Counted from the whole stretch's first letter, positions 351 to 49,313 are shown. The stretch is 63,800 nucleotides of DNA, filler included, from Actinobacteria bacterium UBA7524 (GCA_002478275.1; 5 parts of 4 records of this genome joined end to end with filler, not necessarily neighbours in it); one strand, 5' to 3'. Numbers and translations: made by a program. The notes: generated by a model not told the origin, from the sequence alone.

Positions 351-398
351 TTGCCTCGCATGATTCCAAAGAGTATTGTGTTTCCTAGTTGGGAAACA
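351..398 (+). promoter_or_regulatory. Putative sigma70 promoter with inverted-repeat operator for the AbiE-like pair
   Basis: TTGCCT (351-356), 17-bp spacer, TATTGT (374-379). Inverted repeat TGTTTCC (379-385) / GGAAACA (392-398). Confidence 0.55.
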
Positions 399-415
399 GA
401 TATGTCGGAGGAAAC

Positions 416-1516
416 ATGGCTGCTGTCAGTAGGGATGATGAGTATCGGGGTCTGGAGCACGCGCTCCGGGAGATTTTCCCTGGTGCGACCGTCGAGGTGA
501 ACCCGAGCCGATCGCGAGGCCATGCACCGGCGGCTGAGGCTGACGTGCACCTCGCCCGCGGGCGCCTTCATCTCCGGGTCGTGTTGCAACACGCGGCCAG
601 CCGGGCTCAGCTGATCGATGCCGTCGAGCTGGCGCGCCTTGCCCCCGCGGACGAAGGATCCTCGATCGCGGTCATCGCTTCGGCGTACCTCAGCCCTGCC
701 AACCAGCAGTTGCTGCGCGATGCGAACGCCGCCTTCATCGACTACGCGGGCAACGCGTGGCTCGTGGCGCCGGGAATCCACATCGATCGGCGCGGCTTCG
801 CCAACCCCGGCAAGGAAGAGCGCGGTCAACGCGACCTGTTCTCCGACAAGGCGTCTCTCGTGCTTCGCACCCTCCTCGTTGCGCGCTCCCCGATGGGCGT
901 GCGTGAGATCGCGAGCACCGTCAGCTCGAAAGACGAGCGGATCCGGCTCACCCCAGGCTATGTGTCCAAGATGGTTGGGGAGCTCGAGAGGCGCGGCTAC
1001 GTGTCCAGGAGCGATGAGAAGATCATGCTTCGCCATGCCGACGAGCTGCTGCGCGACTGGACCTCGGCGTATCGAGGTCGCCGCCGGCCAATCCCGGCAG
1101 GCTACTTCGTCCTCGCGCCGAGCGCCGAAGACCTCCTTCCCCGCATCGCCGAGGCGTTCGACGCCAAGGGTGCCGACTACGTCCTCACGGGTCACGCCGG
1201 TGCGAGCCTCGTCGACCGCTACAGTGTGTTCGACGTCGCAGACGTCTACGTCAGGGAAGTCGACGACGTGGTGTCGGCGCTTGCTGACCTCGGCGCACGG
1301 CGAGTCGAGCGCGGCGGCAACGTCAACATATCGGTGCCCTACTATCGGGAGTCGGCGTTCTACGACCGGCAGATGTCGAAAGGCGGGATCAAAGTGGTCT
1401 CCGATCTCCAGCTCTATCTGGACCTCTACGACTATCCCGTCCGTGGCCGGGAGCAGGCCGAGCACCTCTACGAGCGACGCCTGCGCTCGCTCGTAGAGCG
1501 GGAGGATCGACCGTGA
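416..1516 (+). CDS. Type IV TA AbiEi-family antitoxin / transcriptional regulator
   Basis: GGAGG RBS before ATG 416. Central wHTH (GVREIAS...GYVSKMVGELERRGYV). C-terminal SDLQLYLDLYDYPVRGREQAEHL is typical of this family. Overlaps the downstream nucleotidyltransferase gene. Confidence 0.75.
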   Translation: MAAVSRDDEYRGLEHALREIFPGATVEVNPSRSRGHAPAAEADVHLARGRLHLRVVLQHAASRAQLIDAVELARLAPADEGSSIAVIASAYLSPANQQLLRDANAAFIDYAGNAWLVAPGIHIDRRGFANPGKEERGQRDLFSDKASLVLRTLLVARSPMGVREIASTVSSKDERIRLTPGYVSKMVGELERRGYVSRSDEKIMLRHADELLRDWTSAYRGRRRPIPAGYFVLAPSAEDLLPRIAEAFDAKGADYVLTGHAGASLVDRYSVFDVADVYVREVDDVVSALADLGARRVERGGNVNISVPYYRESAFYDRQMSKGGIKVVSDLQLYLDLYDYPVRGREQAEHLYERRLRSLVEREDRP

Positions 1517-2337
1517 ACCGGCTCGACCCGGTCCTTGCGCGCGGCCTCGCCGCCATCGAGCCCTACCTCGACGTGGTCGTCGTTGCCGGCGGATGGGTGC
1601 CGCACATCTACGAGCTGCTCTACGATGCCACCGCGGCCGGTCGATCGCCTCGAACCCGCGACATCGATCTCGCCGTGCCCCGTTCGGTGCCGGTCAGGAG
1701 CAGGAGCATCGATGACTTGCTCAGGAGTGCCGACTTCCGCTGTGAGTTCCACTCACTGGATTCGCCGCCGGTCACGAAGTACGTCGCGAGGCAGGGTGGT
1801 GACGACATAGAGATCGAGTTCATCACCGACGCGCCGGGCGGGTCCGAGGCCGCGATCATGGTGCAGCCGGATCTCTCGGCTCAGGAGCTGCACTACGTCG
1901 GGCTCCTGCTCGAGAGCCCGTGGCCCGTCGACCTCGCCAGCCTGACCGACGGAGAGGTCGACCTGACGATCCTCGTTCCGAAGCCCGGCGCCTTCGTCTT
2001 CCACAAGTCGCTGGTGTTCAAGAATCGCCGAGACCGGCTCAAAGGGGAGAAGGATCTCTACTATGTCTTCTTCGTTCTGGACGCATTTCCGGAGTGGCGA
2101 GAGGCGATCACCGCGGAACTCGAGCGCCTCGCCGCGCAGAAGCCGGCGTGGTTCAAGAAGAGCCTCAAGAACCTGAACGCGATCTTCGACGAGCCGGAGT
2201 CCAGTGGTTTCGATGCGCTTCTCAACCAGAAGCCGCCCACGGCCTTCCCCGGCCTGAGCGACGAGCAGTTCAGGCAGTATGCCTTCTCGGTGATGTCGGG
2301 ATTGATCGCGACGATGGAATCGGCGGTTGACGGCTAA
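1513..2337 (+). CDS. Nucleotidyltransferase-fold toxin (AbiEii/GSU2403-like)
   Basis: VAGGW...RTRDIDL polymerase-beta motif, HK...R...KGEKDLYY C-terminal motif, GTGA overlap with the antitoxin gene. Confidence 0.75.
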   Translation: MNRLDPVLARGLAAIEPYLDVVVVAGGWVPHIYELLYDATAAGRSPRTRDIDLAVPRSVPVRSRSIDDLLRSADFRCEFHSLDSPPVTKYVARQGGDDIEIEFITDAPGGSEAAIMVQPDLSAQELHYVGLLLESPWPVDLASLTDGEVDLTILVPKPGAFVFHKSLVFKNRRDRLKGEKDLYYVFFVLDAFPEWREAITAELERLAAQKPAWFKKSLKNLNAIFDEPESSGFDALLNQKPPTAFPGLSDEQFRQYAFSVMSGLIATMESAVDG

Positions 2338-2608: not shown

Positions 2609-2630
2609 ACCACTTGACGGGACGTGGCCC
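2609..2630. mobile_element. Probable IS256-family terminal inverted repeat at the contig start
   Basis: Identical to 1-22. Confidence 0.6.
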
Positions 2631-2814
2631 GTGCTCTCCTCTTGGGTCAGGGCTTTTCCGGGGTGTCGGGTTCCGAGATTGTTGCTTGGGCCCCGATACC
2701 CATGCGGTCGACTGCTCAGTTCGCATCCTGTTGCGCAACAGTGAACGCTGCTTGGCAGACGAGGGGGCCAGACGCTAGTCTCATCTGCGCGGGGAACGCG
2801 ACAGGACAGGTGCC

Positions 2815-3252
2815 ATGTCATACGCAGAGCTCGGCAACAGCCCCCGCGCGTCGACCGAGGCAGTCGCGCGCTCCATGCGAGGCAATCGAAAGCGTGACAC
2901 GAAGCCTGAGCGGCAGTTGAGAGCGCACCTCCGTGCAGCCGGCATCAAAGGCTACAGGCTCAACTGGGCCAAGGCGACGGGTACCCCCGACATCGCCTTC
3001 CCAGGCAAGAAGGTGGCCGTGTTCGTCAACGGGTGCTACTGGCATCGCTGCCCTCAGTGCCAGCTACCCCTCCCAAGGTCGCACACCGAGTTCTGGAAGG
3101 CGAAGTTCGAGATCAATGTGCGCCGAGATGCAGCGGTGGTGGCTGCGCTTCAGGAGGAGGGCTGGACAGTCATCACGGCCTGGGAATGTGCGATTCGCAC
3201 TCGTGTGGACGAGGTAGTAGCCGAGATCAAGGGCGCGTTGTTGGCCAGATAG
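2815..3252 (+). CDS. vsr: Very short patch repair endonuclease
   Basis: RSMRGNRKRDTKPE, GTPDIAF, AVFVNGCYWH, FWKAKFEINVRRD, GWTVITAWEC. Confidence 0.92.
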   Translation: MSYAELGNSPRASTEAVARSMRGNRKRDTKPERQLRAHLRAAGIKGYRLNWAKATGTPDIAFPGKKVAVFVNGCYWHRCPQCQLPLPRSHTEFWKAKFEINVRRDAAVVAALQEEGWTVITAWECAIRTRVDEVVAEIKGALLAR

Positions 3253-3331
3253 AAGGCAGGATGTGGCCTCGGGACGCGTCAGAGCGGGGTGCTATCCTAG
3301 GCAATGTGCGCCATAACCCGGGGGGACACCA

Positions 3332-5458
3332 ATGCTGCTGCCGGACATCGACCTGCGAATGAGCTATGACTCGGGGGAGCTTGGTGTCGATGTCGTCCGC
3401 GATTTCTATGTGCCCGCGCTGTCAGTAGCCAAGTCGTATGACCGACTAGCGGGGTTCTTCTCATCCACCTCTCTCGCCGTCGCTGCACGTGGGATTGCGG
3501 GACTCCTGGCTAATGACGGGAAGATGCGCCTGGCCACCAGCCCAAGGCTGACGCCCGAGGATGTGCCCATCATCGAGTCGATTTGCCGAGGTGAAGAACC
3601 CGACGCACAGACTCTGACCGATCTGCTGCGACGCGGTCTACAGGAGGATCTAGGCGACGAGATTGCGAAGAACCATGTCCGGGCCTTGGGGTGGATGTTG
3701 TCGAACGACCGCCTTGAGGTGCGGATTGTGAAGCCTACTCCGAAGAGCGGGTTCGAGGGTCTCTTCCATATGAAGGTTGGTTTGATCTGGGACTCAGCCG
3801 GCCGTGCGGTCGCATTCGATGGTTCGCTCAACGAGTCGCTATCGGGCTGGTATCGAAATATCGAGCGGTTCTCCGTGTTCGCGAATTGGCGGGGCGAAGA
3901 GGCTCGCGTAGAAGACGTGCTCCGAACGTTCGTGCGCTACTGGGAGAGCCCTGGACCTTCGGCGCGGACATGGAGACTCCCGGATGCAGTGGCCGAGCAG
4001 CTCATTCAGCTGGCGCCCCGAGACGTGGACGAGCTCGATCTCGGCTACGCGGACCGAGGTGTCGCGGCGGTGCCTGGGTTCACTCCGCAAGAATCGCCCG
4101 CCCATTTCCCTGAGCTCCGATGGTACCAAGAGGAAGCCATCTCGGCCTGGGAAGAGAACGGCTGTCGCGGGATGCTTGAGATGGCCACCGGTACCGGGAA
4201 GACCCTGGCGGCCCTTACCGCCGCCAAGCGGTTAGCCGGTCGGAGCAAGAGACTACTCGTGGTGATTGCTGTCCCCCAGAACCATCTGGCCGAGCAGTGG
4301 ACTGACGACGTGTTGCCCATGTTCCCTGACAGCAGGATTGTTCAGGCGGGCAGCGACTTCTCCGGCTGGAAGAGCAGGCTACTCAGTGCGGTGGCCGCGC
4401 TTGCCGCAGGAGGGAGTGGAGATGTCGCCGTGTGCATTGCAGTCCACAAGACCGCCGGACTCGAGGGCTTCTCCGATGTGGTCAATCGTGCCGCTGCTGC
4501 CGGCTGTCAGACTCTGCTTATTGCGGACGAAGCGCACGATTTGGGCGCCGAGAGGATTGGCGCTGCTCTCCTCGACTGCTACCAGCACAGACTTGGTCTC
4601 AGCGCGACGCCGGAGAGGTTCTATGATTCGTCTGGCACCGCACGGCTCATGGACTACTTTGGCGGTGTCGTCTTCAAGTTCGGACTGCCGGAAGCGCTTG
4701 CCGAGGGCGTCCTGACTCCCTATGAGTACCACTGCACGTTCGTTCAGCTGAACGAGGATGAGCTCGCCGAGTATCGTGAGCTTACAAGCAGGGCCGCTCG
4801 AGCCGCCTTCGCGACGCGCCGCGATGGTGGTGCGGGAGCTAGCCAGGCTGAGGAGCGCTTCTTGCAGCAACGTGCCGCGGTTGTGAAGAAGGCTGCTAGT
4901 AAGATTGACGCATTCTACGCACTCTTGGAGCTCTTGGGAGAACGCCTCCAACACTGCATCGTCTACTGCCTTGACACTGATCAGATGTCGCTTGTGGATG
5001 AGGTCCTGGACGCGCGTCACATCGTCTACCGACACTTCACGGGAGACGAGAGCAAGCCGGACCGATCGAGGATCCTGGGCAGCTTCGAAAACGGCGACAC
5101 TAAGGTCCTCGTGGCCATGAAGTGCCTGGACCAGGGCGTTGACGTCCGAGAGGCTCGAACAGGCATCATCCTTGCCAGTTCCACAAACCCGCGCGAGTCC
5201 ATCCAGCGGCGTGGGAGACTGCTGCGGCTGCACAAGGACAAGGAACGTGCGCACATCTATGATCTCATTGTCTCCCCAGACCTCGAACGTATCGATGACC
5301 CAGTTCTGAGGCAGGTCGAACTGAGACTATTCCTCAAGGAGCTCCGGCGGCTTGAGGAGTTTGCTGCAAGCGCGATGAACGCCGCCGAGTGCTACGCACA
5401 GGTGGCTGACGAGCTAGCACGGCTGGAGACGCCAGGCGACGCAGTCCTATACGACTAG
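3332..5458 (+). CDS. PLD-nuclease + SF2 DEAH helicase (PbeA / dnd-associated restriction enzyme-like)
   Basis: N-terminal FYVPALS...YDRLAGFFSS; PLD motif HMK...D...GSLNES; Walker A MATGTGKT; DEAH; LGLSATP; QRRGRLLR. Confidence 0.85.
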   Translation: MLLPDIDLRMSYDSGELGVDVVRDFYVPALSVAKSYDRLAGFFSSTSLAVAARGIAGLLANDGKMRLATSPRLTPEDVPIIESICRGEEPDAQTLTDLLRRGLQEDLGDEIAKNHVRALGWMLSNDRLEVRIVKPTPKSGFEGLFHMKVGLIWDSAGRAVAFDGSLNESLSGWYRNIERFSVFANWRGEEARVEDVLRTFVRYWESPGPSARTWRLPDAVAEQLIQLAPRDVDELDLGYADRGVAAVPGFTPQESPAHFPELRWYQEEAISAWEENGCRGMLEMATGTGKTLAALTAAKRLAGRSKRLLVVIAVPQNHLAEQWTDDVLPMFPDSRIVQAGSDFSGWKSRLLSAVAALAAGGSGDVAVCIAVHKTAGLEGFSDVVNRAAAAGCQTLLIADEAHDLGAERIGAALLDCYQHRLGLSATPERFYDSSGTARLMDYFGGVVFKFGLPEALAEGVLTPYEYHCTFVQLNEDELAEYRELTSRAARAAFATRRDGGAGASQAEERFLQQRAAVVKKAASKIDAFYALLELLGERLQHCIVYCLDTDQMSLVDEVLDARHIVYRHFTGDESKPDRSRILGSFENGDTKVLVAMKCLDQGVDVREARTGIILASSTNPRESIQRRGRLLRLHKDKERAHIYDLIVSPDLERIDDPVLRQVELRLFLKELRRLEEFAASAMNAAECYAQVADELARLETPGDAVLYD

Positions 5459-5467
5459 GAGGCAGAA

Positions 5468-5650
5468 TTGTCGAACAAGATTGCCGACAAGCTTGATGCA
5501 GTGGTGGACAACGAGGCCGTCCGGGCCGCGCTGCAAGACATCTTCCTGTTTGAAGTCGATCAAGGGCAGGGCGGCATCCAGTACAAGAAGGAGTATCGCG
5601 CAGTCCTCGAGCGCAGTCGCAAACACGGCCAGGAAGCGGGCGAGGAGTAG
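5468..5650 (+). CDS. Small helical protein of CxC-ATPase modules (PbeB-like)
   Basis: 60 aa with AGGAGG RBS. Fills the helicase-ATPase gap, and its TAG abuts the ATPase ATG. Confidence 0.7.
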   Translation: MSNKIADKLDAVVDNEAVRAALQDIFLFEVDQGQGGIQYKKEYRAVLERSRKHGQEAGEE

Positions 5651-7663
5651 ATGCGCATCGTCAAGATTGAGGTGGAGAACTATCGACAGTACCGGGATCA
5701 AGTCTTCGACTTTGCGTCCGGACAGAACGTGTCCGTAATCGTAGGAAGAATCGGGAGCGGGAAGACAAACCTCCTGAACGCCCTCACCTGGTGTCTGTAT
5801 GGCAAGGAGCACTTTGCGGGCGGTGACATGGAGGTGCAGCAGCGAGGGCGGTCTCGCGCCGATGATGGCCCCCGAAACGGCCTGCCGCTCCTCAACGTCG
5901 GCCCTCTTGACAGGGACCTCAAGCCCGGACTGTACGAGACCAAAGTCGAAATCACGCTGGAGCTCGAGGCCGGCGCTCGTGCAATCGTGTCGAGACGCCA
6001 GAACTTCATCGTCAAGGACGACAATGATGTCACTCCCGATGGCGACTCACGATTGACCGTCATGTACAAACGCGACGGTGCAGGATACGACGATCTTGCA
6101 GAGCCACAACACTGGGTGAACAAGCATCTGCCCGAGCGAGTCCGGCCGTATTTCGTGCTAAACACCGAGCGTCTGCAGCAGTTCTTCCATCAGGGCGCCG
6201 AGGCCTCAAGGGTCAAGAACGCGATTCTCGAAATCGCGCAGATTGACGTGCTCGCCACGATGCGCGATCGATTGAACGCAGTCAGAAGTGACTACTACCA
6301 ATCCGCGGGAAGCGGAGGGGGCGACGAGCTCCTGGTGCGGCTTCAAGGGGATCGGGCGAGGCTTGAAGAACGAATCGCTGGCAAGAACGAGGACTTGAGG
6401 CGTCAAGCCGAAGCCTTGGAGCGCCACGAGCATGACATCGCCGAGATTCTCGACGAAATCGGCGACATGGAGGAAGCAGCTACCCTTGTCAGGGAACATG
6501 AGGACAAGGAGGACGAGCTCGAGAGGGTTGTGAAGGACCTCGAGGGAGCGGAGCTTGAGCTCCGAAAGCAGTCCGCTCTCGATGCGCCTGCGGTCCTTGG
6601 ATTGCCGATGCTTGAGCGATTCCTGCAATACGTGGACACGGCAATCGAGGCCGGTAGGTGGCCAGCGCCCGTGCATCCCGGCTACGTTCGCAAGCTCATT
6701 AGTGAGAGCCGCTGCATGTGCGGATGCGAGTTGGATGACGAGAGGCGCGCTCGTCTCGAGCAGATTGCCAGGGACGGCGAGCAATCACCGAACCGAGTAC
6801 TGATGGAGATGCAAAGACCCGCGGCGGTTCTGAAGTCGCGTGCGGAGAGCTACCGCCAGCGCATCGGCCCGACTCAATCACGCATGGCCGATCTCAACAC
6901 GCGCGGTACAAGGCTTCGGCAGCGGCTTGACGCGATTCAAAGCGATCTGGACCGCCTGGGCGTGAAGGACCGAGACTTCGACTTGAAGAAGGAACGATGG
7001 TCCATGGCGCACAAGGGGAAGGAAAGCGCCCTTACCGCCATCGCCTTGCTGGGCAAGGAAGTCGAAGGGCTGGAGACACAGCTCGCTGAGACCACGAAGA
7101 ACCTGAAGCTGCAGTTGGCGAAGGACGAGGGGAAGCGCGAACTCGCCCGCATGGTCGCATTCACCGAGGAGTGCATAACCGCAGTTGACCGGGCCTACAC
7201 GGAACTCATCACGGAGACGCGCGAGGAAGTCTCGTCCGCCCTAAACGACTCATTCCTCAAGATGATTGAGGAGACCAAGGGCCGTACATTCACCAGTGCC
7301 GCAATTGATGCCAACTACCGTGTATCCATCACTGCTGCCTCGCGTTTCGATGCGGCGGAGAATCTTGGGGGTGGCGAGGATGTGTGTCTTGCGCTCTCCT
7401 TCAGCCAAGCACTCGGCAGGGTATCCGGATTCGAGCTGCCGCTCATACTCGACAGCCCCTTCGTGAAACTGGACCCAGAGGCGATGTCAGTGGTGATGCG
7501 TACGATGCTCGACAATCTCTCGGGACGTCAGATGATCCTGCTCATGAAGACCCAGGAGTATAACTCCGGGGTCCAGGATGTGCTCAGAGACCACGGTGTC
7601 TCAGACGCGCTCAGACTGGAATTCGATGAGCAGACACAGTCGACATCTGTGATAGGAGCGTGA
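5651..7663 (+). CDS. SMC/Rad50-like ABC ATPase with CxC hook (DndD/PbeC-like)
   Basis: ENYRQY, Walker A GRIGSGKT, long coiled coil with central CMCG, signature LGGGE, Walker B LILDSPF. Confidence 0.85.
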   Translation: MRIVKIEVENYRQYRDQVFDFASGQNVSVIVGRIGSGKTNLLNALTWCLYGKEHFAGGDMEVQQRGRSRADDGPRNGLPLLNVGPLDRDLKPGLYETKVEITLELEAGARAIVSRRQNFIVKDDNDVTPDGDSRLTVMYKRDGAGYDDLAEPQHWVNKHLPERVRPYFVLNTERLQQFFHQGAEASRVKNAILEIAQIDVLATMRDRLNAVRSDYYQSAGSGGGDELLVRLQGDRARLEERIAGKNEDLRRQAEALERHEHDIAEILDEIGDMEEAATLVREHEDKEDELERVVKDLEGAELELRKQSALDAPAVLGLPMLERFLQYVDTAIEAGRWPAPVHPGYVRKLISESRCMCGCELDDERRARLEQIARDGEQSPNRVLMEMQRPAAVLKSRAESYRQRIGPTQSRMADLNTRGTRLRQRLDAIQSDLDRLGVKDRDFDLKKERWSMAHKGKESALTAIALLGKEVEGLETQLAETTKNLKLQLAKDEGKRELARMVAFTEECITAVDRAYTELITETREEVSSALNDSFLKMIEETKGRTFTSAAIDANYRVSITAASRFDAAENLGGGEDVCLALSFSQALGRVSGFELPLILDSPFVKLDPEAMSVVMRTMLDNLSGRQMILLMKTQEYNSGVQDVLRDHGVSDALRLEFDEQTQSTSVIGA

Positions 7664-7667
7664 GGAC

Positions 7668-8081
7668 GTGGAGGCGGTGCGCGAAACACTCAACGTCGAG
7701 AACGACCCCGACCGCAGACCAGAGTACGACCGTCTTCGCAATGCACTCGGCGGTGTGGAGACCAAGGTCTCGTTTCTCATCTCCATGATGTACGGCTTCC
7801 AGAACCGATCGCGTATGCCCTTGAAGAAGAAGATCAGCTACGTAAGGATTTCCTACCTCAACGAGGAGGATCGCTGCCTCGTCGCCGCGGTTGCCCTCGA
7901 GTCCGGGCTGACTGAGGACACGTTCTCATGGAACGAGGCGTTCGAAATTGCGGAGGAGTACGCGCGGGGCGGAATCGCGCTCCTGCGCAATCGCCTTGAA
8001 GATATCCACGAGTTTGAGAACTCCTTCCCGCTCGAGATTCTGGCGCAGTCGCCAGAATCCGTGGCGACGAACGAGGCGTAG
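7668..8081 (+). CDS. DndE-like / phosphorothioation-associated protein 4-like (PbeD-like)
   Basis: 137 aa directly after the ATPase, with the AEEYARGGI motif characteristic of the family. Confidence 0.7.
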   Translation: MEAVRETLNVENDPDRRPEYDRLRNALGGVETKVSFLISMMYGFQNRSRMPLKKKISYVRISYLNEEDRCLVAAVALESGLTEDTFSWNEAFEIAEEYARGGIALLRNRLEDIHEFENSFPLEILAQSPESVATNEA

Positions 8082-8084
8082 CAG

Positions 8085-9293
8085 ATGGCCCTCGTGCTGC
8101 TGGTACAACCGCCTTTCCCAACGGCGCGCAAGAGTCTGAACCACAAAGACTTCCTTCCCGTTGGGCTCCTCAAGCTTGCTGCCTGGCGGCGGGCGATGGG
8201 TGATGATGTTCAGCTGTCGTTGGGCTGCGTCAGGTGTAGTGGAACGCCTGATGAGATATACGTCACCTCCTTGTTCACCTACTGGTCACAAGTGGTTGCG
8301 GATACCGTGGCGGAGTGTCGATCGAAATACCCGGGAGCGCACATAACGGTCGGCGGGATTTACGCTTCGCTACAGCCCGAACACTGCGCTGCAAAGACAT
8401 GTTGCGATGAGGTCCATGTTGGCGTCCATGCTGAAGCCGACGGGTTCGCACCTGAGTACTCGCTGGTCGACACAGACTTCCAAATCGTACATGCATCCAG
8501 AGGTTGTGTTCGGCGATGCAGGTTCTGTGGCACCTACGAGATTGAACCAGACTACGTGCCCAAGAAGTCGATTGCCCACGAGGTGGTCAAGAACCATCTG
8601 GTCTTCTACGACAACAACTTGCTCGCAAACCCAAACATCGAGGATCTTCTGGGCGAGGTTGCGCAAATGCGAGTAGGCGGACGCGTGGTGACATGCGAAA
8701 GCCAGAGCGGGATTGATGGCAGACTGCTACTCGAGAAGCCAGCGTTGGCGTCCGTGCTTAAGCAGGCACGCTTCCGCAGCGTACGAATCGCGTGGGACGG
8801 GCCAGTCAGGCAGAGCGACAGCATCAACGAGCAGCTGCAGATTCTCGTCCACGCTGGCTTCCCGCGGAAGGAACTCCAGATCTTCATGCTGTACAACCAC
8901 GATATGAGTCCCGAGAGCATCTTCGAGAAAGTCGAGCAATGCTTCCAGTGGGGGGTCCAGGTATCCGACTGCCGCTACCGGCCGCTTGACCTCTTCCACG
9001 ACGGCTACTTGCCGCAAGCAGTGTCTCAGGACGACTCAGAATACTACCTCCATGAGGGTTGGACAGATGCTGATGTGCGGGGCGTCAGGAGGGCCGTCCG
9101 AGCGAACAACATCTGCGTCCGGTACGTGATACCGCGAGAGAGATACGCTCGAGAGCTCGAGGGGCTGAGCTTTCGGGATAAGCGGCGAATTGCCACCTCG
9201 CTTGGGATTCCGGGGTCGAGGTACTCGTCTCAGGAGCTTGATCGGATCAACGCTCACTGGCTTGAACGTCGCGCACCATCCAGTGGCTCCTAG
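8085..9293 (+). CDS. Cobalamin-binding-domain radical SAM protein
   Basis: N-terminal VLLVQPP...PVGLLKLAA...TSLFT...VGGIYAS B12-binding-like domain; SRGCVRRCRFC (CxxxCxxC); DNNLL. Confidence 0.85.
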   Translation: MALVLLVQPPFPTARKSLNHKDFLPVGLLKLAAWRRAMGDDVQLSLGCVRCSGTPDEIYVTSLFTYWSQVVADTVAECRSKYPGAHITVGGIYASLQPEHCAAKTCCDEVHVGVHAEADGFAPEYSLVDTDFQIVHASRGCVRRCRFCGTYEIEPDYVPKKSIAHEVVKNHLVFYDNNLLANPNIEDLLGEVAQMRVGGRVVTCESQSGIDGRLLLEKPALASVLKQARFRSVRIAWDGPVRQSDSINEQLQILVHAGFPRKELQIFMLYNHDMSPESIFEKVEQCFQWGVQVSDCRYRPLDLFHDGYLPQAVSQDDSEYYLHEGWTDADVRGVRRAVRANNICVRYVIPRERYARELEGLSFRDKRRIATSLGIPGSRYSSQELDRINAHWLERRAPSSGS

Positions 9294-9308
9294 GTTGAGT
9301 GCCTACTG

Positions 9309-11807
9309 ATGCCGTTCATGCTCAAGCAATTCCCTCGCCCGGGATACGCAATCGTCGCGCGGGCCCTTGCGCCGTATCTCCAGCATGACAACGCCCACGT
9401 GTGGCGCGAATCAGGTCATCGATGGTCACGGTGCTCACAGTTGGATGCGTCAGTCTGGTCTGCTGTAAGCCCCCAGGTCGCAACCCGACTAGCGAGCGTT
9501 GCCACGCAGCGGGCCCAGAGCCTGGTGTATCTACCGCCACCCGATCTTGCCGAGATGACCGTCGGAGACCTTGCCGCTGACGGTTGCGATGTGCTGGTTG
9601 TATCGAAGGGAACCTACGGTGCTCTCCAGCGCGCGGGTGTCATCGTGTCCGGGGATGCCTTCTACTCGCTCACACTGTCGAGGTTGTTCCGGGTGCCTGG
9701 ATTCGGAGGCAAGGCACTGCTCGATCTGGCCGCTTCCCTCGAGACACCCCGGCCCGTGCTGTTTGCTGCCCCCGAGAACCCCCGACCCGTGCCGTCCGCC
9801 GCCCGGCGAGTCCCGCGGGTGACTCGCTCGAATCCGTACGTCGAAACCTTCGGGACTCTCCAGATAGCTCAGGACAGCTTCCCTCGTCCCGGACAGGCCA
9901 TCGTGCCGAGAGTCCTGCAATCGGTCTTCACGCCCGGATTCCGCATCGACCCTGAGTCGCCCACTTGGGATTCGGCGACCCGGGTTGAGCAGTCCCGGAC
10001 GGCGGAATCAGCCGCTCGACGTCTTCTGGCCGAGATGAATCCACCTCGGCCGCCGCTCGCCGATGTCCGTCTGAGCCAAGTCGGTCGGCTCGAGGGACGC
10101 CGACTCACCCTGACCAGGCGCACTGTGAATGCGCTTGGTCGCGCCGGTCTCCTCACGGAGGAGGAGGGATTGGCCGACGCAACGCTGGGCCAGGTCTGGG
10201 GAGTGAAGGGCCTTGGCCCGCGCTCCATCCTTGACTTACTCACGAGCCTGGAGCTTGAGTCCGCGGACCAGCCAGTCGATGATGCCATGCTGTACCAAGC
10301 GTCACCCTGCCGCGACCCCCTCACGAGACGAGCAGCGCGCATTGACGCTGCTCTCGAAGCGTCGGGACAGTCATGCTTCGACCCCAAGGTGACGCGTGGG
10401 CCATCCGGCGAGTTCGTGGCATTCGTCAGAGCGGCGGCTTCCTCGGCGAGGAACGCCGAGATTGCCCTCTCCAGATTCGGATGGCAGGAGGAGTCTACTC
10501 AAACCCTGGAACAGCTGGCACAACGCTTCGGGTTGACGCGCGAGCGGGTTCGGCAAATCGTGACCAAGGTTCAACAAACTGCAGCCGCTCTGGCAGAAAG
10601 AGTGGGCACCCCGCACCTCGACGCGGTTCTCGCTCGGATTGAAGTGGCTGGCGGCGTCAACTCCGCGGAGCTAGATGCCAGGCTGCGCGAGGAGGGTCTG
10701 CTAGAAGCGCCGTGCTGTGCGAGAGACATCGCGCTCATTGCTCGCTGGCTTGGTAAGCCGACAGAAGCCTCCGAGCGCCTCATAGAATCGTCCTCGGCCC
10801 GGGACAACGAGAGGGCGAGTCACGACACGAGGCTCGATCAGGCCATTCGCCGCGTTGCTCGGCGATACGGGGCGGTCCGACTTGACTACTTGTGGACGTT
10901 GCTCGAACAGCAGGATGTTGGGGGACATGTCGAGGCTCTACGAGAGGAGCTGCGCCAACGGTATGGGGCGGAGCCTCTGGATGGAGAAGGTAGCTGGTGC
11001 TGGACGGCCCATTGCGAGGTCGCTACGACCACGCTGGGCAACAGTATGCGCAAGGCCCTGTCGGTGGCTGCCGACCTTTCGCTGGTGGAGCTGCATAAGG
11101 CCGCATCGAAGAACCCGCGCTTGAATGACCGACTGCCTCCGTTCGAGGTCTTCGTTGAGATGTGCAAGCGCACATCCTGGCTCGTAGTCCAGGGACATCA
11201 GGTATGCGCCAAGACACCAATCAGTCCTGAGGTCGTGATGGAGGGAGATGAGCTTGCGATAGTGCGTTTGCTGTTGACGTACGGCCCTGTTCTCCCAGTC
11301 CATGACCTCTGGACACTCGCCTCTTCCGATGGCATGGGCAAGGTCAGCTTCTGGATGTGGCTGCGGAACTCTCCGGCCATCTCGCGCGTCGGCCCCTCCT
11401 TGTACGCGCTGGTTGGGGCGGAGATCCTGGCGACGGACCTTGTTCGTCTCGACGAGCAGACGCGGCCGAAAAGTGCGACCGTCATGAGGGAGTGGGGGCG
11501 GACCCCCGCCTCATCCTGGGCAAGCTACAGGTTGAGCGGGCCGGCGATCCGCACTGGGCGGCTGAGAATCCCGACTCCCATTAGGGGCAATCTTTGCGAG
11601 CGATACGATGTCCAGGTCGATGAAGGCCACGCTGAAGCACTCTTCGTTGGTGAAGGCACCGAGTTCCGCGGACTCACTCACCACTTCCGCCGGCTGGGCG
11701 CACGACCCGGCGACTGGCTTCTGATTGTCATCGGAGGCAGGGCGGCCCGACTGATTCTAGGAGATGAAGCCGCGATTCGGGCGGAGTGTGGACGGCTGTC
11801 CTGCTAG
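9309..11807 (+). CDS. Protein with two RNAP alphaCTD-like HhH modules and a sigma70 region 4 HTH
   Basis: LFRVPGFGGKALLDL and VWGVKGLGPRSILDL; RFG...TLEQLAQRFGLTRERVRQI. Confidence 0.7.
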   Translation: MPFMLKQFPRPGYAIVARALAPYLQHDNAHVWRESGHRWSRCSQLDASVWSAVSPQVATRLASVATQRAQSLVYLPPPDLAEMTVGDLAADGCDVLVVSKGTYGALQRAGVIVSGDAFYSLTLSRLFRVPGFGGKALLDLAASLETPRPVLFAAPENPRPVPSAARRVPRVTRSNPYVETFGTLQIAQDSFPRPGQAIVPRVLQSVFTPGFRIDPESPTWDSATRVEQSRTAESAARRLLAEMNPPRPPLADVRLSQVGRLEGRRLTLTRRTVNALGRAGLLTEEEGLADATLGQVWGVKGLGPRSILDLLTSLELESADQPVDDAMLYQASPCRDPLTRRAARIDAALEASGQSCFDPKVTRGPSGEFVAFVRAAASSARNAEIALSRFGWQEESTQTLEQLAQRFGLTRERVRQIVTKVQQTAAALAERVGTPHLDAVLARIEVAGGVNSAELDARLREEGLLEAPCCARDIALIARWLGKPTEASERLIESSSARDNERASHDTRLDQAIRRVARRYGAVRLDYLWTLLEQQDVGGHVEALREELRQRYGAEPLDGEGSWCWTAHCEVATTTLGNSMRKALSVAADLSLVELHKAASKNPRLNDRLPPFEVFVEMCKRTSWLVVQGHQVCAKTPISPEVVMEGDELAIVRLLLTYGPVLPVHDLWTLASSDGMGKVSFWMWLRNSPAISRVGPSLYALVGAEILATDLVRLDEQTRPKSATVMREWGRTPASSWASYRLSGPAIRTGRLRIPTPIRGNLCERYDVQVDEGHAEALFVGEGTEFRGLTHHFRRLGARPGDWLLIVIGGRAARLILGDEAAIRAECGRLSC

Positions 11808-11844
11808 GGTCGGTCCGCCATCCAGCGTATCCAGCTTCCAGAAG

Positions 11845-11979
11845 TTACTGGCTGGGGGTGTCAGACGGCAAGGTGCCGCCGAGTGCCCGCTCAATTGCCG
11901 CCGCCGTCTCCTGCAAGTTGGGCAGGACGTGACCGTACGTATCGAGCGTGATTCCCACGTTCGAGTGCCCGAGTCGCTC
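11845..11979 (-). pseudogene. Tyrosine integrase C-terminal remnant
   Basis: Manual translation ERLGHSNVGITLDTYGHVLPNLQETAAAIERAL contains the LGH...TY catalytic box. The rest of the gene is absent. Confidence 0.8.
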
Positions 11980-12019
11980 ACAAGGTCCCGTGGGGTCCGT
12001 CGGTTGCACGCTCGCCTGC

Positions 12020-12474
12020 CTAGGGCGTCGGAGCCATCGCTGACGCCTTCCACTCCGGTCTCCGAATCGACGCGATTGTGGAGCTGCGTGTAGACAGCTC
12101 CGAGATCTTCACGACGTCACCGGTGCGCGGTGCATGAACATACTTGCCGCCGCCGATGTACATGCCGACGTGGTGGACGTGTCCCGCTTCCCAGAAGATC
12201 ATGTCGCCGGGCTGGATCTGCGACAAGCTGACGCCCGTGCCGAGGGTGTTCCACATGGAGGAGGTCGTGCCGCGAGCGGTGAAGCTCGTGTAGCGCCACA
12301 TGATCCAGTCCGCGAGACCGGAACAGTCGAACGTGTCCGGGCCGGTTGCTCCCCACACGTACGGACAGCCGAGGACGGACAGGGCAAGCCGCACCGGCGG
12401 AAAGTTGACGGCGACGCCTGACTTGTCGAGCTCGCCCAGTACCTCAGGGGTGAGTGCCGTCGCACCGGGGCCAC
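12020..12474 (-). pseudogene. NlpC/P60 (C40) peptidase C-terminal part, interrupted by an IS end
   Basis: PYVWGATGPDTFDCSGL...PGDMIFW...HVGMYIG. The frame stays open up to the IS end at 12475. Confidence 0.75.
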
Positions 12475-12546
12475 TGTAGCCGACGATGTGAAACTGACCC
12501 TCTACTGACGATTTGAAATTGACCCCCCCTGCACGGCAGGGACACG
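12475..12546. mobile_element. IS21-family terminus
   Basis: Starts TGT; tandem internal repeats GACGATGTGAAACTGACCC (12482-12500) and GACGATTTGAAATTGACCC (12507-12525); the contig ends here. Confidence 0.75.
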
Positions 12547-12646
12547 NNNNNNNNNNNNNNNNNNNNNNNNNNNNNNNNNNNNNNNNNNNNTTAATTAATT
12601 AANNNNNNNNNNNNNNNNNNNNNNNNNNNNNNNNNNNNNNNNNNNN

Positions 12647-15739: not shown

Positions 15740-15906
15740 CTCACTCCTCGTCTTGTAACCAGATGTCCGCCAGTTCACGCGTGATGCTGTTACCGCCGGG
15801 CGGGACNNNNNNNNNNNNNNNNNNNNNNNNNNNNNNNNNNNNNNNNNNNNTTAATTAATTAANNNNNNNNNNNNNNNNNNNNNNNNNNNNNNNNNNNNNN
15901 NNNNNN

Positions 15907-33062: not shown

Positions 33063-33207
33063 CATGAACCGACAGTATAGCGCGTGAGTCACCTTCGTGG
33101 ACCGTCAGAGAAGCGCCATACCGGGAACATTCATCAGTACGAACGAACACACCGCGGAGCCACTCAGCTCCGCGCGATGCATCTGCACCCGACGTAAGGA
33201 GGCGGAG

Positions 33208-34350
33208 ATGACCGACACCCTCGATCGCGAAACCTTGACCGAGATCGCCCGCCACGAGGGATGGCCTGCGATCTCGATCCATATGAGCACCCATCGCGCC
33301 GGCCCCGACGTACAGCAGGACCCCATCCGTTTCAAGAACCTCCTCAAGACCGCCGAGGAGACACTTCACGAATCGATGAGGGCACCGGACATCGCGAAGC
33401 TACTGGCACCAGCGTACGATCTCCTCGGCGATACGGCCTTCTGGCGAGGGAGCACCGAGGGGCTTGCCGTGTTCGTCGGCACGGACGACTTCCGTGTCTT
33501 CCGTCTGGACGTCGAAGTGCCGGAAAGCGTGATGGTGGCGGAGCGTTTCTCCATCCGGCCGGTCCTGCCTGCCCTGGGCGTCGACGAGCGCTTCTACGTG
33601 CTGGCGCTGAGCAAGAAGTGCGTGCGGCTTCTCGAAGGCACTCGCCACGAGGTCCACGAACTCGACCTGACGGGGGCTCCGCAGAGTCTGGCAGACGCGC
33701 TGAAGTACGACGAATACCAACGCCAGGTGCAGTTCCACTCCGGGACACCAGCAGGAGCTGCCGGTGGTAAGCGAGCTGCGATGTTCCACGGGCATGGAGG
33801 CGTCCCCGACGTCGAGAAGTCCAACCTCCTGCGCTACTTCCGCCTGATTGACCGGGGGATGCACGAGCTGCTCCGGGATGAGGACGCCCCTCTGTTGCTC
33901 GCCGGGGTCGACTACCTCATGCCTCTGTACAAGGAGGCGAGCTCCTACGCGAACCTGGTGGACGTGTCGATGGCGGGAAACCCGGACGAACTCACGCCGG
34001 CTGAACTGCACGCCGAGGCGCGCAAGCTGCTCGAACCGCTTTTCCGAGCCGAACTGACGCGGGACCTGGAGAAGCTTGAGGCCCTGCTGGGCACAGGCGC
34101 CGCCTCCCGCACGCTGACGGACATCCTTCCCGCAGCGCACGAAGGCCGCGTCGATGTCCTGTTCGTCTCTCCGCAGCGAACGGACTGGGGCACCTACGAT
34201 GCGGAAACCCGGGTCGTGACACTCAACGGGGGTGAGAGGTCTGCAGGCGCACGGGACCTGTTCGATCTCGCAGCGGCGCAGACCCTGCTCCATGGCGGCA
34301 CCATCCACGCGACGGATGAACCACCGATATCCGCGATCTTCAGATACTGA
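33208..34350 (+). CDS. Bacterial archaeo-eukaryotic release factor-like protein (baeRF3/7 type)
   Basis: SIHMSTHRAG...QDPIRFKNLL, GLAVF, FYVLALS, PLLLAG, GRVDVL, AIFRY; AAGGAGG RBS. Confidence 0.75.
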   Translation: MTDTLDRETLTEIARHEGWPAISIHMSTHRAGPDVQQDPIRFKNLLKTAEETLHESMRAPDIAKLLAPAYDLLGDTAFWRGSTEGLAVFVGTDDFRVFRLDVEVPESVMVAERFSIRPVLPALGVDERFYVLALSKKCVRLLEGTRHEVHELDLTGAPQSLADALKYDEYQRQVQFHSGTPAGAAGGKRAAMFHGHGGVPDVEKSNLLRYFRLIDRGMHELLRDEDAPLLLAGVDYLMPLYKEASSYANLVDVSMAGNPDELTPAELHAEARKLLEPLFRAELTRDLEKLEALLGTGAASRTLTDILPAAHEGRVDVLFVSPQRTDWGTYDAETRVVTLNGGERSAGARDLFDLAAAQTLLHGGTIHATDEPPISAIFRY

Positions 34351-42955: not shown

Positions 42956-43056
42956 NNNNNNNNNNNNNNNNNNNNNNNNNNNNNNNNNNNNNNNNNNNNT
43001 TAATTAATTAANNNNNNNNNNNNNNNNNNNNNNNNNNNNNNNNNNNNNNNNNNNNG

Positions 43057-45877: not shown

Positions 45878-48800
45878 ATGGCGCTCAGCAATCGCGATCG
45901 CGTGGGCAAGGGCCTTGACCTGCTCGCCCAAGGGCTTCGGCCCTTCTTCATGCGCGAGATGCACGCAGCGCTCGGTGACTCCTGGGCCGAGCAGGCCGCC
46001 GCCGGTGCTAAGGAGGGTTCGTCGGCGGCGGAGTTCCGCGACGTCTACGTGCTGCTCAAGGCCATGTGGGACTACTGGCACCAGGTGTTCGGCAAGGTGC
46101 TCGGGCACACGGAACGCACGCTCGTGAGCGAGCTTCGCGACGTACGCAACCGCTGGGCGCACAACGAGCCCTTCTCGGCGGATGACGCGTACCGCGCGCT
46201 CGACAGCATGCACCGCCTGCTGCTCGCCGTCTCGGCGCAAGAAGCGGTCGAGGCCGATCACATGAAGCAGGAGCTGCTGCGCATCCGCTTCGCCGAGTCC
46301 GCGAAGAAGGAGATAAAGCGCGCCGCGCAGACGGCGCTCGAGGGCATGCCGATGGCGGGTCTCAAGTTGTGGCGCATGGTCATCAAGCCGCACGACGACG
46401 TGAGCTCGGGCCGCTACCAGACGGCGGAGTTTGCGGCCGACCTCGGGCAGGTGCACCGCGGCGAGGGCAGCGACGAGTACCGCGAGCCTCGGGAGTTCTT
46501 CCGCCGCACCTACATGACCGAGGGCCTGCGCTCGCTGCTCGTACGCGCGCTCAAGCGCCTCGCCGACACCGGCGGCGACCCGGTCATCGAGCTGCAGACC
46601 AACTTCGGCGGCGGCAAGACCCACTCGCTGCTCGCCCTCTACCACCTCGTCTCAGGCGTCGATCCGGCGACGCTTCTCGGGGCCGACGTGGTGCTCAAGG
46701 ACGCGGGCCTCTCCGCGCTCCCGAAGGTCAACCGCGCCGTGCTCGTGGGCACCGCGATCTCGCCGGGTCAGCCGGACGTGAAGGCCGACGGCACCGAGGT
46801 GTGCACGCTCTGGGGCGAGATGGCCTGGCAGCTCGGCGGGGCCGAGGGCTACGCGATCGTCGCCGAGGCGGACCGCACCGGCACGAACCCCGGAACGAAG
46901 CTCAACGACCTGCTGCGTACGTACTCGCCGTGCATGGTGCTCATCGACGAGTGGGTCGCCTACGCGCGCCAGCTCTACGCGAACAGTGAGCTTCCGGCCG
47001 GCACGTTCGACACGCACTTCACGTTCGCCCAAGCGCTCACCGAGGCAGCTGCGGCCGTCCCGGGCGCGCTGCTCGTGGTGAGCATCCCGGCAAGCGACAA
47101 GGTCCGCGCGGTCCAGGGCGCCACCGGCGACGTGAGCGCGATCGAGATCGGCGGCGAAGGCGGCGTCGAGGCGCTGCGCCGCCTGAAGGCGGTCGTCGAG
47201 CGCGTGGCCGCCCAGTGGCAGCCGGCCAGCGCTGATGAGGCGTACGAGATCGTACGGCGCCGCCTGTTCGAGGAGATGACCGACCCCGACGCGTCTGCCG
47301 CGCGCGACGCGGTCATCGAGGCGTTCATGAACCTCTACCGTTCGCAGACGGGGGACTTCCCCGGTGAGTGCCGTGAAGCGGAGTACCGGCGGCGCCTCGA
47401 GGCGGCCTACCCGATCCACCCCGAGGTGTTCCAGCGCCTCTACGAGGACTGGTCCACGCTCGAGCGCTTCCAGCGCACCCGCGGCGTGCTGCGCCTCATG
47501 GCGGCCGTCATCCACGCGCTGTGGGTCCGCGAGGACGCGTCGCTGCTCATCCTGCCCGGCACGATCCCCATCGACGATGCGGACGTGCGCTTCGAGCTCA
47601 CGCGCTACGTCGAAGACACCTGGAAGCCGGTCATCGAGCGTGACGTCGACGGCCCAGCCTCGCTTCCTGTCGCACTCGACAAGGAAAACCCCAACCTCGG
47701 ACGGTACTCCGCGGCGCGGCGGGTCGCGCGCACGGTGTACATGGGCTCGGCGCCCACGGCGGCAACGACGCACCCGGGACTCGAGGACAAGCGCATCAAG
47801 CTCGGGTGCACGCAACCGGGCGAGACGCCGGCGGTGTTCGGCGACGCGTTGCGGCACCTCTCCGACAAGGCGACGCACCTCTACACGGACGGCTCCCGCT
47901 ACTGGTTCGCCACGCAGCCGAGCGTCACACGGCTCGCGCAGGAGCGCGCCGAGCAACTGCCCGAGGCCGACGTCCACGCCGAGATGGTCAAGTTCGTGCG
48001 TGCCGAGTGCGCGCAGCGATCGGACTTCTGCGCCGTGCACGTCGCGCCCGACTCGCCCGGTGATGTGCCCGACGAGGATGAGGTGCGCCTCGTCGTCCTC
48101 GGGCCGCGCTACCCGCACTCGCCCAAGGTGCAGCTCTCGGAGGCGACGAAGCGCGCGCAGGAGATCCTTGAGAGCAAGGGCTCAGCACCGCGCCGGTTCC
48201 GCAACATGGTCGTATTCCTCGCGCCCGACCGCACGGCGCTCGATGCGCTCGAGTCCGCGGTGCGGATGACGATGGCGTGGGACTCGATCGTGCGTGACTC
48301 CGGCGCGCTCAACCTCGACGCTTTCCAGAGCAGCCAGGCGATCAGCAAGTTGCAGCAGGCGAAGGAGGCCGCACAGCACCGGGTGTACGAGACGTACCAG
48401 TGGGTCATCGTGCCCTCGCAGCCCGACCCGCAGGGCGGCACCGAGTGGCGCCAGGTCAAGGCCGCCACACAAGGCCAGCTGCCGGAGCGCGCGGCGCGCA
48501 AGCTCAAGCACGAGGAGCAGCTGCTCACCGAGTGGGCAGGCGTGCTGCTCCGGCACCAGATGGACCGCATCCCGCTGTGGCCGCAAGGTGCAGGCCACAT
48601 CCAGGTCAAGGCGCTGTGGGAGCTCTTCGCGCAGTACCTGTACCTGCCGCGGCTCAAGGACATGGGTGTGCTGAGCGGCGCGATCCAGTCCGGCGTCATG
48701 GACACCGCCTGGCAACAGGACACGTTCGCCTACGCGGAGGCCTACGACGAGGCGAGCGGGCGCTACCAGGGTCTCAGGTGTGGCCAGATGACGAGCGTGC

Positions 48801-49192: not shown

Positions 49193-49313
49193 GTGACGTC
49201 CCGGCGGAGCCAGAGACTGGAGCGGGCGGCGCCATGCGTCACCCGCTCATCTCACGTGACCGTGGGCGGCTGTGACCTGTAGGGCTGAGAATCCGGGTGA
49301 TGCAGGGTGTGTG

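Follow-up and report, generated by a model that had tools for sequence, protein, structure and literature searches.

What a radical S-adenosylmethionine (SAM) enzyme does at the end of a restriction-type defence operon is the question raised by a gene cluster (positions 2815-11807) in a 63.8-kb window, the whole stretch of DNA analysed here, which derives from a metagenome-assembled genome (MAG) of Actinobacteria bacterium UBA7524. The cluster is composed of seven open reading frames (ORFs), all on the plus strand and separated by consecutive gaps of 79, 9, 0, 4, 3 and 15 nt: a very-short-patch repair gene (vsr), four genes of the pbeABCD type, the radical SAM gene and a gene for an 832-aa protein with a sigma-70 region 4 motif. 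To judge from its sequence, the cluster joins a Pbe/CxC core of known type to a radical SAM partner that is new and recurs elsewhere. That the five genes at 3332-9293 form one restriction-type defence operon, made up of the PbeABCD/CxC-ATPase core and the radical SAM gene, is a proposition that we hold to be evenly balanced, and there is in our view an even chance that the radical SAM enzyme is the self-marking (DNA-modification) component of the Pbe module. A broader proposal, somewhat less probable, is that this one enzyme family marks self DNA for at least five restriction architectures (Pbe/CxC, DISARM-like, GHKL-ATPase, SNF2-helicase and DndB-HEPN) in Bacteria and Archaea, mostly anaerobes, that phages use the same enzyme as a disguise for their DNA, and that its product is a third kind of restriction-modification (RM) mark beside methylation and phosphorothioation.

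The identity of the core is carried by two large proteins. The pbeA gene (3332-5458) codes for an HKD (PLD-type) nuclease fused to a superfamily 2 (SF2) helicase, which matches the PADLOC model PbeA PDLC02707 at 1.7e-201 over residues 3-687 and contains an HxK motif at residue 146, GTGKT at 287 and DEAH at 399, together with ResIII and Helicase_C domains; its match to TIGR04095 (9.8e-118) lies under the cut-off of that model. This protein is the presumed restriction effector. The pbeC gene (5651-7663) codes for a CxC-type coiled-coil ABC ATPase of 670 residues (PADLOC PbeC PDLC02723, 2.9e-73), with a Walker A motif at residue 32 and the motif C-M-C-G-C mid-protein, at 355-359; its similarity to DndD (TIGR03185, 9.3e-27) is also under the cut-off. 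Between both genes lies a 60-aa ORF with a TTG start (5468-5650), considered PbeB-like by its position, which found no match among Pfam, PADLOC and TIGRFAM-type family models. It has a homologue at the equal position in another locus with the module (L005; phmmer 1e-10), and ORFs of 60-87 aa fill the PbeB slot in other Pbe loci.

The fourth gene of the core, pbeD (7668-8081), codes for a 137-aa protein predicted to be a DndE-like double ribbon-helix-helix DNA-binding protein. Alone, this protein matches TIGR04062 only at 1e-3, and 15 of its 17 aligned relatives match the same model (best 4.8e-11), all of them under the cut-off. Its AlphaFold2 (AF2) model (pLDDT 87.6) contains two strand-helix-helix repeats followed by a long C-terminal helix, and the ten best Foldseek rows among PDB structures are all DndE (7x4e: E 1.4e-2, probability 1.00, TMt 0.60), at weak E-values (0.014-0.22). 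The radical SAM enzyme, the 60-aa protein and the DndE-like protein are not covered by any PADLOC model. The PbeABCD/CxC-ATPase layout proposed in the first-pass annotation is thus borne out, PbeA and PbeC by PADLOC and motifs and the DndE-like protein by its relatives and its fold, as are the tight spacing of 0-15 nt from the helicase onward (9, 0, 4, 3 and 15 nt) and the start of the radical SAM gene 3 nt past the preceding stop (the 137-aa ORF ends at 8081 and the next one starts at 8085).

PbeABCD or CxC-type ABC-ATPase systems have been described by Xiong et al. 2019 (PMC6459918) and in a reappraisal by the Aravind laboratory (PMC10853773), and the partners named in the parts of the latter covered here are the DndCDEA phosphorothioation genes, C5 or N4 cytosine methylases and MTaX1. 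The present locus shares with them an HKD-SF2 helicase, a small protein, a CxC ABC ATPase and a DndE-like protein in the same order, but its operon ends in a radical SAM enzyme, and DndC was not found in the 83%-complete genome. Neither MTaX1 nor cysteine desulfurase, PAPS-reductase-like or DndC-like genes are present on the 9.9-kb contig that holds the cluster (C8). Arguments from absence on this contig are weak, because the window is made of joined MAG contigs and C8 is only 9.9 kb long.

The radical SAM gene (8085-9293) codes for 402 aa, with an N-terminal Rossmann-like (B12-binding-like) domain and a CxxxCxxC motif at residues 141-148, where the barrel starts. This motif was found in 99 of 101 representatives of at least 330 aa, and C141, C145, C148, C286 and C296, together with several further motifs, are invariant across 25 aligned homologues. 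At the sequence level the matches are faint: the Pfam matches to Radical_SAM (2.6e-4) and B12-binding (PF02310, 1.7e-3) are both under the gathering scores, PF02310 is precomputed on roughly a third of the homologues listed, and a profile search against PDB sequences gave nothing significant (best E 0.11). Its AF2 model (pLDDT 85.5) is composed of two domains and resembles AprD4 (Z 25.3, root-mean-square deviation 2.9, 324 residues aligned), MgmA (Z 21.9), MtaB and MiaB (Z about 21) and TsrM (Z 20.3), with RimO, CysS, OxsB and TokK as further structural neighbours; the barrel matches many radical SAM structures with Z values of 9-25. The N-terminal domain is devoid of conserved cysteines, and a MiaB-type auxiliary cluster is therefore not expected. 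AprD4 likewise possesses an N-terminal domain of this kind and presumably works without cobalamin. Since this fold class mixes cobalamin-dependent methylases, tRNA methylthiotransferases and AprD4, the label of B12 enzyme given earlier to this protein is a hypothesis rather than a finding: its radical SAM part stands on the CxxxCxxC motif and the barrel fold, while the use of B12 is unproven and the best fold match is AprD4.

This enzyme belongs to a large and widely spread family. A word-index search retrieved 1,811 proteins at E<=1e-3, and an exhaustive profile search gave 2,610 representatives at 50% identity and E<=1e-3, 1,271 of them at E<=1e-10. Bacterial and archaeal members share about 50% identity, and the family is found in methanogens, candidate phyla and their phages; it is rare in the phylum of the source organism (4 of 401 genomes sampled). 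Among longer, fused relatives the word-index search gave only a beta-helix fusion (possibly an artefact of gene calling) and an intein-bearing copy. Inteins occur in some of the members P0127, P0230, P0237, P0254 and P0276 (PF14528 and PF14890 are precomputed on P0127), and others of this set are split by a long insert into two matched stretches.

The genomic surroundings of the family were analysed in the best-scoring 80 of 158 confirmed genome loci, in which ORFs were called and neighbours clustered. With few exceptions the radical SAM gene closes a defence-type operon. In 59 of these loci it directly follows a partner gene of the same orientation, at a median distance of 1 nt; 54 of the intervals do not exceed 60 nt. 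Automatic labels assigned 44 loci to a GHKL context, 17 to Pbe, seven to DISARM-like, three to an SNF2 helicase set and one to DndB-HEPN, and left eight with none. One locus labelled Pbe (L028) is really of the GHKL type, which leaves 16 of 80 linked to Pbe, and a DndB/DpdB-HEPN protein is present in two loci (L065 and, as an additional partner, L021). The partner proteins match HATPase_c_3, DrmA (1.7e-91), DrmB (6.3e-30), DrmC (4.9e-14), DrmE_C (1.2e-15), SNF2 and DndB/DpdB (1.6e-27). Linkage to Pbe was found in Coriobacteriia, Methanobacteriaceae, Hadarchaeota and Phycisphaerae, as well as in a genome of the phylum sample (G002), and the order of a DndE-like gene followed by the radical SAM gene (gap of 0-60 nt, or overlap) recurs in distant phyla and in Archaea. 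The suspected linkage between this enzyme and the helicase/ATPase module is thus a recurrent one (16 of 80 loci and G002). In a quick tree of the family, the Pbe label needs at least six changes across well-supported branches, suggesting repeated re-association of the enzyme with modules rather than one inherited operon. Some of the islands are bounded by housekeeping genes (e.g. L064 and L067).

The commonest home of the family (44 of 80 loci, within L007-L084; e.g. L013 2899-6464, L023 and L030) is a set of two or three genes: the radical SAM gene, one for a GHKL (HATPase_c_3) ATPase about 500 aa long and, frequently, one for a protein of some 330 aa outside known families (clusters c5 and c6, mutually related); no PADLOC system model corresponds to it. 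In the Methanobrevibacter loci L045 and L070 a single radical SAM gene is flanked by two Pbe modules. All four Methanobrevibacter loci of this group (L045, L049, L059 and L070) contain NUDIX genes (cluster c16); L045 contains, in addition, a DpnI-like gene (cluster c7).

The reading of the enzyme as a marker is drawn from what fills its slot in sibling modules and from the scarcity of methylases around it. PbeA-family matches were found in 55 of the 401 genomes of the phylum sample (a tally that includes the unpublished genome G318, which supports no other claim), and full-length PbeA in eight places. Among these eight loci, two contain an N6_N4 methylase (one of them, with MTaX1, on contig C54 of the same genome), two contain SspABCD-like genes (G252 and G052), one has a DndB-domain protein, two carry the radical SAM enzyme studied here (C8 and G002), and the eighth has, upstream of PbeA, a distant homologue of it (A1 profile 2.6e-15) with a CxxxCxxC motif of its own. 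In the 80 loci, local hidden Markov models (HMMs) of four methyltransferase classes detected a DNA methylase within 8 kb of the radical SAM gene in 14 and a C5 methylase within the locus in only two, and Pfam assigned no DNA methylase domain to any of the 92 flanking proteins checked. Canonical DISARM includes a methylase (DrmA, DrmB and DrmC with DrmE and DrmMII, or with DrmD and DrmMI). The seven DISARM-like loci, among them L044, L058, L067, L075 and L081, have homologues of DrmA, DrmB and DrmC and a large fourth protein (with DrmE_C in two loci), but the radical SAM enzyme is at the expected methylase position, and none of the seven has a methylase detected by the local HMMs inside 8 kb.

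Phages and gene fusions point in the same direction. All nine IMG/VR loci carry the radical SAM gene without a nuclease or ATPase partner, on contigs that also hold terminase, primase, exonuclease, HNH and C5 methylase genes, and the family has its own PHROG (phrog_9298). One viral locus (L085) has a DndE-like gene (5e-33) directly upstream. C5 methylases were identified by PHROGs in the viral loci L087, L089 and L093, and Dcm-like matches lie within a few genes of the radical SAM gene in five of the nine. Among 150 representatives examined, two are fusions: P0238 is a complete C5 DNA methylase (M.HaeIII, 2.8e-29, residues 26-351) joined to a domain of the radical SAM family, and P0266 combines the enzyme with C5-methylase C-terminal motifs. 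The methylase-fused proteins fall in a sister branch that is remote from the family (about 1e-40 against its profile). Two further candidates, the N-terminal part of P0259 (methylase-like by eye) and the C-terminal part of P0217 (ParB-like by eye), matched neither PDB nor the local HMMs and were not counted.

A physical association of the enzyme with the DndE-like protein is weakly predicted. The complex prediction is a weak pass, with a score of 0.50 (runs of 0.57, 0.50 and 0.50), the best of three controls reaching 0.01; no less than 74% of contacts are common to the runs, and the pLDDT of the partner is 78 or more. Of 157 solved complexes, 116 pass the mark applied to this score, as do 2 of 215 mismatched pairs; passes with a score of 0.60 or less comprise only 18 of the 157 solved complexes and both of the mismatches. 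These counts hold only roughly, since the alignments used here were our own.

Taken together, the filling of the sibling slot by a methyltransferase with MTaX1 or by Ssp genes, the general absence of methylases near the radical SAM gene, the phage copies without nuclease partners, the C5-methylase fusions and the weak predicted complex argue for a marking role. According to this proposal, the enzyme would use a 5'-deoxyadenosyl radical to install a novel mark on host DNA, at sites that may be chosen by the DndE-like protein, possibly with PbeC as a clamp, and PbeA would cut DNA devoid of the mark. The corresponding slot of sibling Pbe modules is occupied by an N4/N6 methylase with MTaX1 or by SspABCD phosphorothioation genes. 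GHKL-ATPase, DISARM-like, SNF2-helicase and DndB-HEPN modules have taken up a member of the same radical SAM family as their terminal gene, and phages have captured it, much as they do methylases. The proposal of a self-marking enzyme made in the first-pass annotation fits the genes of the sibling slot, the methylase count of the DISARM-like loci, the phage copies and the fusions; its premise that no Dcm was at hand did not survive.

That premise was an artefact of the assembly. The source MAG consists of 60 contigs (1.81 Mb, 83% complete), and the window is made of contigs C7, C8, two parts of C10 (1-3160 and 67161-94209) and C11, joined by spacers of 44 N, 12 nt and 44 N, so that runs of N lie at 2509-2608, 12547-12646, 15807-15906 and 42956-43055; other runs of N, inside genes, stand for withheld bases. 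The module occupies all of C8 (9,938 bp; window 2609-12546), which begins with a 21-nt terminal repeat of an insertion sequence (IS; 2609-2629) with a target-site duplication of 8 bp directly behind it (2630-2637). Two related termini of 21 nt close, between them, ten contig ends of the MAG, six of the type found on C8 and four of the partner type, and the 8-mer behind the C8 terminus is the exact reverse complement of that behind a partner terminus at the left end of contig C6. The same kind of match between end pairs was found for C34/C29 over 9 bp and C55/C38 over 8 bp, so that three of the four partner-type ends are paired, and the chance of even one such match is about 4e-4 (24 possible pairs x 4^-8, by our own arithmetic). 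The matched 8-mers and the low chance expectation indicate that one copy of the IS sits between reversed C6 and C8. On C6, co-oriented with vsr, is the gene of a 452-aa C5 cytosine methylase (PF00145 2.1e-52; PADLOC MTase_II 1.7e-143), whose stop lies 24 nt from the target duplication, which gives a distance before the insertion of 24 + 8 + 177 = 209 nt from the Dcm stop to the ATG of vsr. The insertion thus appears to have split an upstream Dcm from vsr.

IS256 elements create target duplications of 8-9 bp. Terminal repeats with such duplications are present at the contig breaks, but the name of the IS family is unsupported by any transposase match: the IS256-type transposase PF00872 has none in the binned genome, the body of the IS is missing from the assembly, and the earlier IS256 label could not be verified. 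Public sequencing runs yielded no contig bridging the IS (that of the likely source run begins 7 nt before the C8 start), and a second public study yielded only identical fragments, again with no bridge.

Whether the Dcm belongs to the Pbe module is a different matter. Directly upstream of it on C6 is a 522-aa Sau3AI/MutH-like protein (PADLOC REase_II 1.6e-9; PDB Sau3AI 8e-4 over residues 366-480, a weak match), so that the order of genes before the insertion was Sau3AI-like nuclease, Dcm, vsr, pbeABCD, radical SAM gene and sigma-70 region 4 gene, the IS now separating Dcm from vsr. The vsr gene (2815-3252) is well identified (107.6 bits for TIGR00632, whose cut-off is 97.85; PADLOC Vsr 1.9e-21), but it is not a conserved member of the module and is absent beside its relatives in L005, L064 and G002. 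Because the Dcm follows a Sau3AI/MutH-like nuclease, and because vsr and Dcm are missing beside the modules of L005, G002 and L064, these three genes read as a separate, self-sufficient type II RM system that would not be part of the Pbe module. A Dcm just across the IS break, the finding that the first-pass annotation had itself named as fatal to its proposal, is therefore formally present on C6, but its cognate status is doubtful in view of its own Sau3AI-like nuclease.

A true self-marker in this Dcm, with the radical SAM enzyme as an accessory, is consequently a rather improbable explanation. C5 or N4 methylases frequently accompany CxC systems, according to the parts of PMC10853773 covered, and Dcm, vsr and pbeA-D were co-oriented before the insertion, with the 209 nt given above between Dcm and vsr; the complete RM system that Dcm seems to form with the nuclease directly before it and the lack of Dcm and vsr beside the closest full relatives of the module speak against it. 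Slightly more probable, though still unlikely, is a two-enzyme mark, in which a C5 methylase, here the Dcm beyond the IS, would first make 5-methylcytosine and the radical SAM enzyme would then turn this into a hypermodified base. CysS and TokK extend methyl groups iteratively, and both are among the structural neighbours of the enzyme; the fusions P0238 and P0266, the Dcm upstream of the present module, a MutH-like nuclease and Dcm pair adjoining the radical SAM gene in L050 and L072, and the Dcm-like genes near it in five of nine viral loci would also agree with this order of steps. However, C5 methylases are present in only two of the 80 genome loci, the fusions lie in that remote sister branch, and the Dcm here comes with its own Sau3AI-like nuclease and Vsr.

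The enzyme could also have nothing to do with marking. It might be an effector or a small-molecule enzyme, making a viperin-like nucleotide analogue or inflicting radical damage on invading DNA, an idea favoured by its best fold match, the small-molecule dehydratase AprD4, by its position as the terminal gene of the operon and by the defence radical SAM enzymes already known, the prokaryotic viperins and Ophion (10.1101/2025.09.30.679545, in the part covered). Phages, however, keep the gene among their own DNA-metabolism genes, the family is fused to DNA methylases, each partner module comes with a nuclease or helicase effector already, and orphan copies exist (8 of 80 loci, and L094 and L095), so that we consider such a role improbable, on a par with the Dcm as true marker. 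Modification or maturation of a protein of the module (e.g. the small or the DndE-like protein), or service as an Fe-S redox switch, is less probable again: the second-best fold match is the protein methylase MgmA, and the contact with the DndE-like protein is weakly predicted, but the partner proteins are wholly different across the five module types and the phage and orphan copies occur without them. Finally, a chance neighbour with no functional link would suit a single 9.9-kb MAG contig and defence islands that mix unrelated genes; since the order of DndE-like and radical SAM genes recurs in distant phyla and in Archaea, and 59 of 80 loci have a co-oriented partner immediately upstream, it has very little probability.

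Several points weigh against a marking role nevertheless. Close relatives of the enzyme (L094 and L095, 62-63% identity) have no Pbe module and lie beside SLFN-type helicase/AIPR or NurA-like genes. Its best structural match acts on a small molecule and MgmA acts on a protein. At the present locus there is a co-oriented C5 methylase just across the IS, and the local methyltransferase HMMs, built from few sequences, can miss methylases elsewhere. The predicted complex with the DndE-like protein is a weak pass, the tree is a quick version, and the 80 loci are top-scoring rather than random, many of them being related. Moreover, CxC/Pbe systems without a linked modification gene are described in the covered parts of PMC10853773, so that a missing methylase is no proof that the radical SAM enzyme is the marker.

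Among described enzymes, AprD4, the class B B12 methylases (MgmA, TsrM, CysS, TokK and OxsB) and the methylthiotransferases (MiaB, MtaB and RimO) share with the proposed marker the two-domain fold, with its Rossmann-like N-terminal domain, and the CxxxCxxC motif at the start of the barrel, but the enzyme studied here has no structure match at the sequence level, no conserved cysteine in the N-terminal domain and two invariant cysteines in its C-terminal part, and its context is defence rather than biosynthesis or tRNA modification. Dnd and Ssp systems likewise make non-methyl DNA marks with chemistry related to Fe-S and SAM, possess a DndE-type binder and are read by restriction partners that include Pbe; they differ in that the radical SAM family is unrelated to them and in the sulfur-related genes that C8 lacks. 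One published precedent for a radical SAM enzyme that acts on DNA bases in phage-host conflict is gp53 of phage M6, an SPL-like isomerase of thymidine hypermodification (PMC8989533, in the part covered). It belongs to a different family, without the Rossmann-like N-terminal domain, is encoded by phages only, and works on a hypermodification installed beforehand, outside cellular restriction modules. The parts of PMC10853773 covered mention radical SAM enzymes solely in connection with DndC, and in the full-text literature searched, the neighbourhood supplements of that paper and the ABC-ATPase survey it cites (ref. 24) aside, no description of the present family beside Pbe, DISARM-like or GHKL modules was found.

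The last gene of the cluster (9309-11807) codes for the 832-aa protein, which contains alpha-CTD-like repeats and a sigma-70 region 4 helix-turn-helix (HTH) at about residues 380-425 (Sigma70_r4 4.7e-5); the matches to MzaA (3.3e-7) and RpoS (8.6e-8) are each confined to residues 379-421, and the C-terminal half of the protein has no family assignment. The search for homologues yielded no more than two (28% and 26% identity), one of which carries precomputed PF03118 (alpha-CTD) and PF04545, in agreement with the alphaCTD/sigma4 identity assigned at first. An orthologue follows the radical SAM gene in L005. The protein is 28% identical to its orthologue, against 71% for the neighbouring radical SAM enzymes (a shared 8,246-bp contig of both homologues is inferred), suggesting that it evolves fast. 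Sigma70_r4 proteins of 1,202 and 767 aa adjoin Pbe modules lacking the radical SAM gene in G041 and G252, and the 767-aa protein of G252 has nothing in common with the 832-aa protein except the HTH. L005 also has a 189-aa Sigma70_r1_1 protein upstream of PbeA. From these contexts the sigma-70 region 4 protein is treated as going with Pbe modules rather than with the radical SAM enzyme, perhaps as an accessory that serves in regulation or sensing; the idea that it acts as a decoy of RNA polymerase parts is speculative. Proteins with pieces resembling RNA polymerase recur beside Pbe modules (L005 4460-5029, L132 5917-9525 and L136 174-2477).

The same genome contains a second, divergent Pbe module on contig C54 (L133, 10809-16684), with the N6_N4 methylase and MTaX1 mentioned above, a PbeA related to that of C8 at 3e-92 and an SMC_N/AAA_23 ATPase. 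The NlpC/P60 gene that follows it is nearly identical to a truncated one at window positions 12020-12394, and both cassettes may represent the same hotspot in two strains or paralogous islands. The guanine-plus-cytosine content of C8 (61.1%, against 63.5% for the genome) falls in the 7th percentile of 10-kb windows and is a weak sign of foreign origin. A promoter and terminator scan of C8 performed no better than shuffled sequences (2 sites against 1.8 expected, and 3 against 5.8).

The breaks of the MAG fall mainly at copies of mobile elements. A second repeat family (a run of about 22 nt) terminates at least nine contigs, and 22 nt are common to the right ends of C8 and C25. Contig C7 (2.5 kb) opens with the same IS terminus as C8 and carries, at window positions 389-2337, an AbiEi-like antitoxin (PF09952) followed by an NTP_transf_8 nucleotidyltransferase, which resemble an AbiE-type pair. 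Another defence-like cluster is present on contig C11 (window 45878-56576), where a protein of 2,434 aa that combines DEAD and UvrD helicase modules comes after a 1,104-aa HEPN_Swt1 and DUF499 protein, amid ORFs without family assignment. A protein with a bacterial eRF1-like domain (baeRF family 7/3) adjoins housekeeping genes at 33097-34350.

The self-marks known from restriction systems are methylation, phosphorothioation and 7-deazaguanine. If the radical SAM enzyme is indeed the marker of these modules, it would represent a new chemistry for self-marking and probably a new natural modification of DNA, and it could explain how many Pbe, DISARM-like and GHKL modules that seem to be methylase-less avoid autoimmunity. 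Such a marker would also bear on the epigenomics of uncultured anaerobes and on the conflict between phages and their hosts, and it might yield tools in the form of DNA-modifying enzymes.

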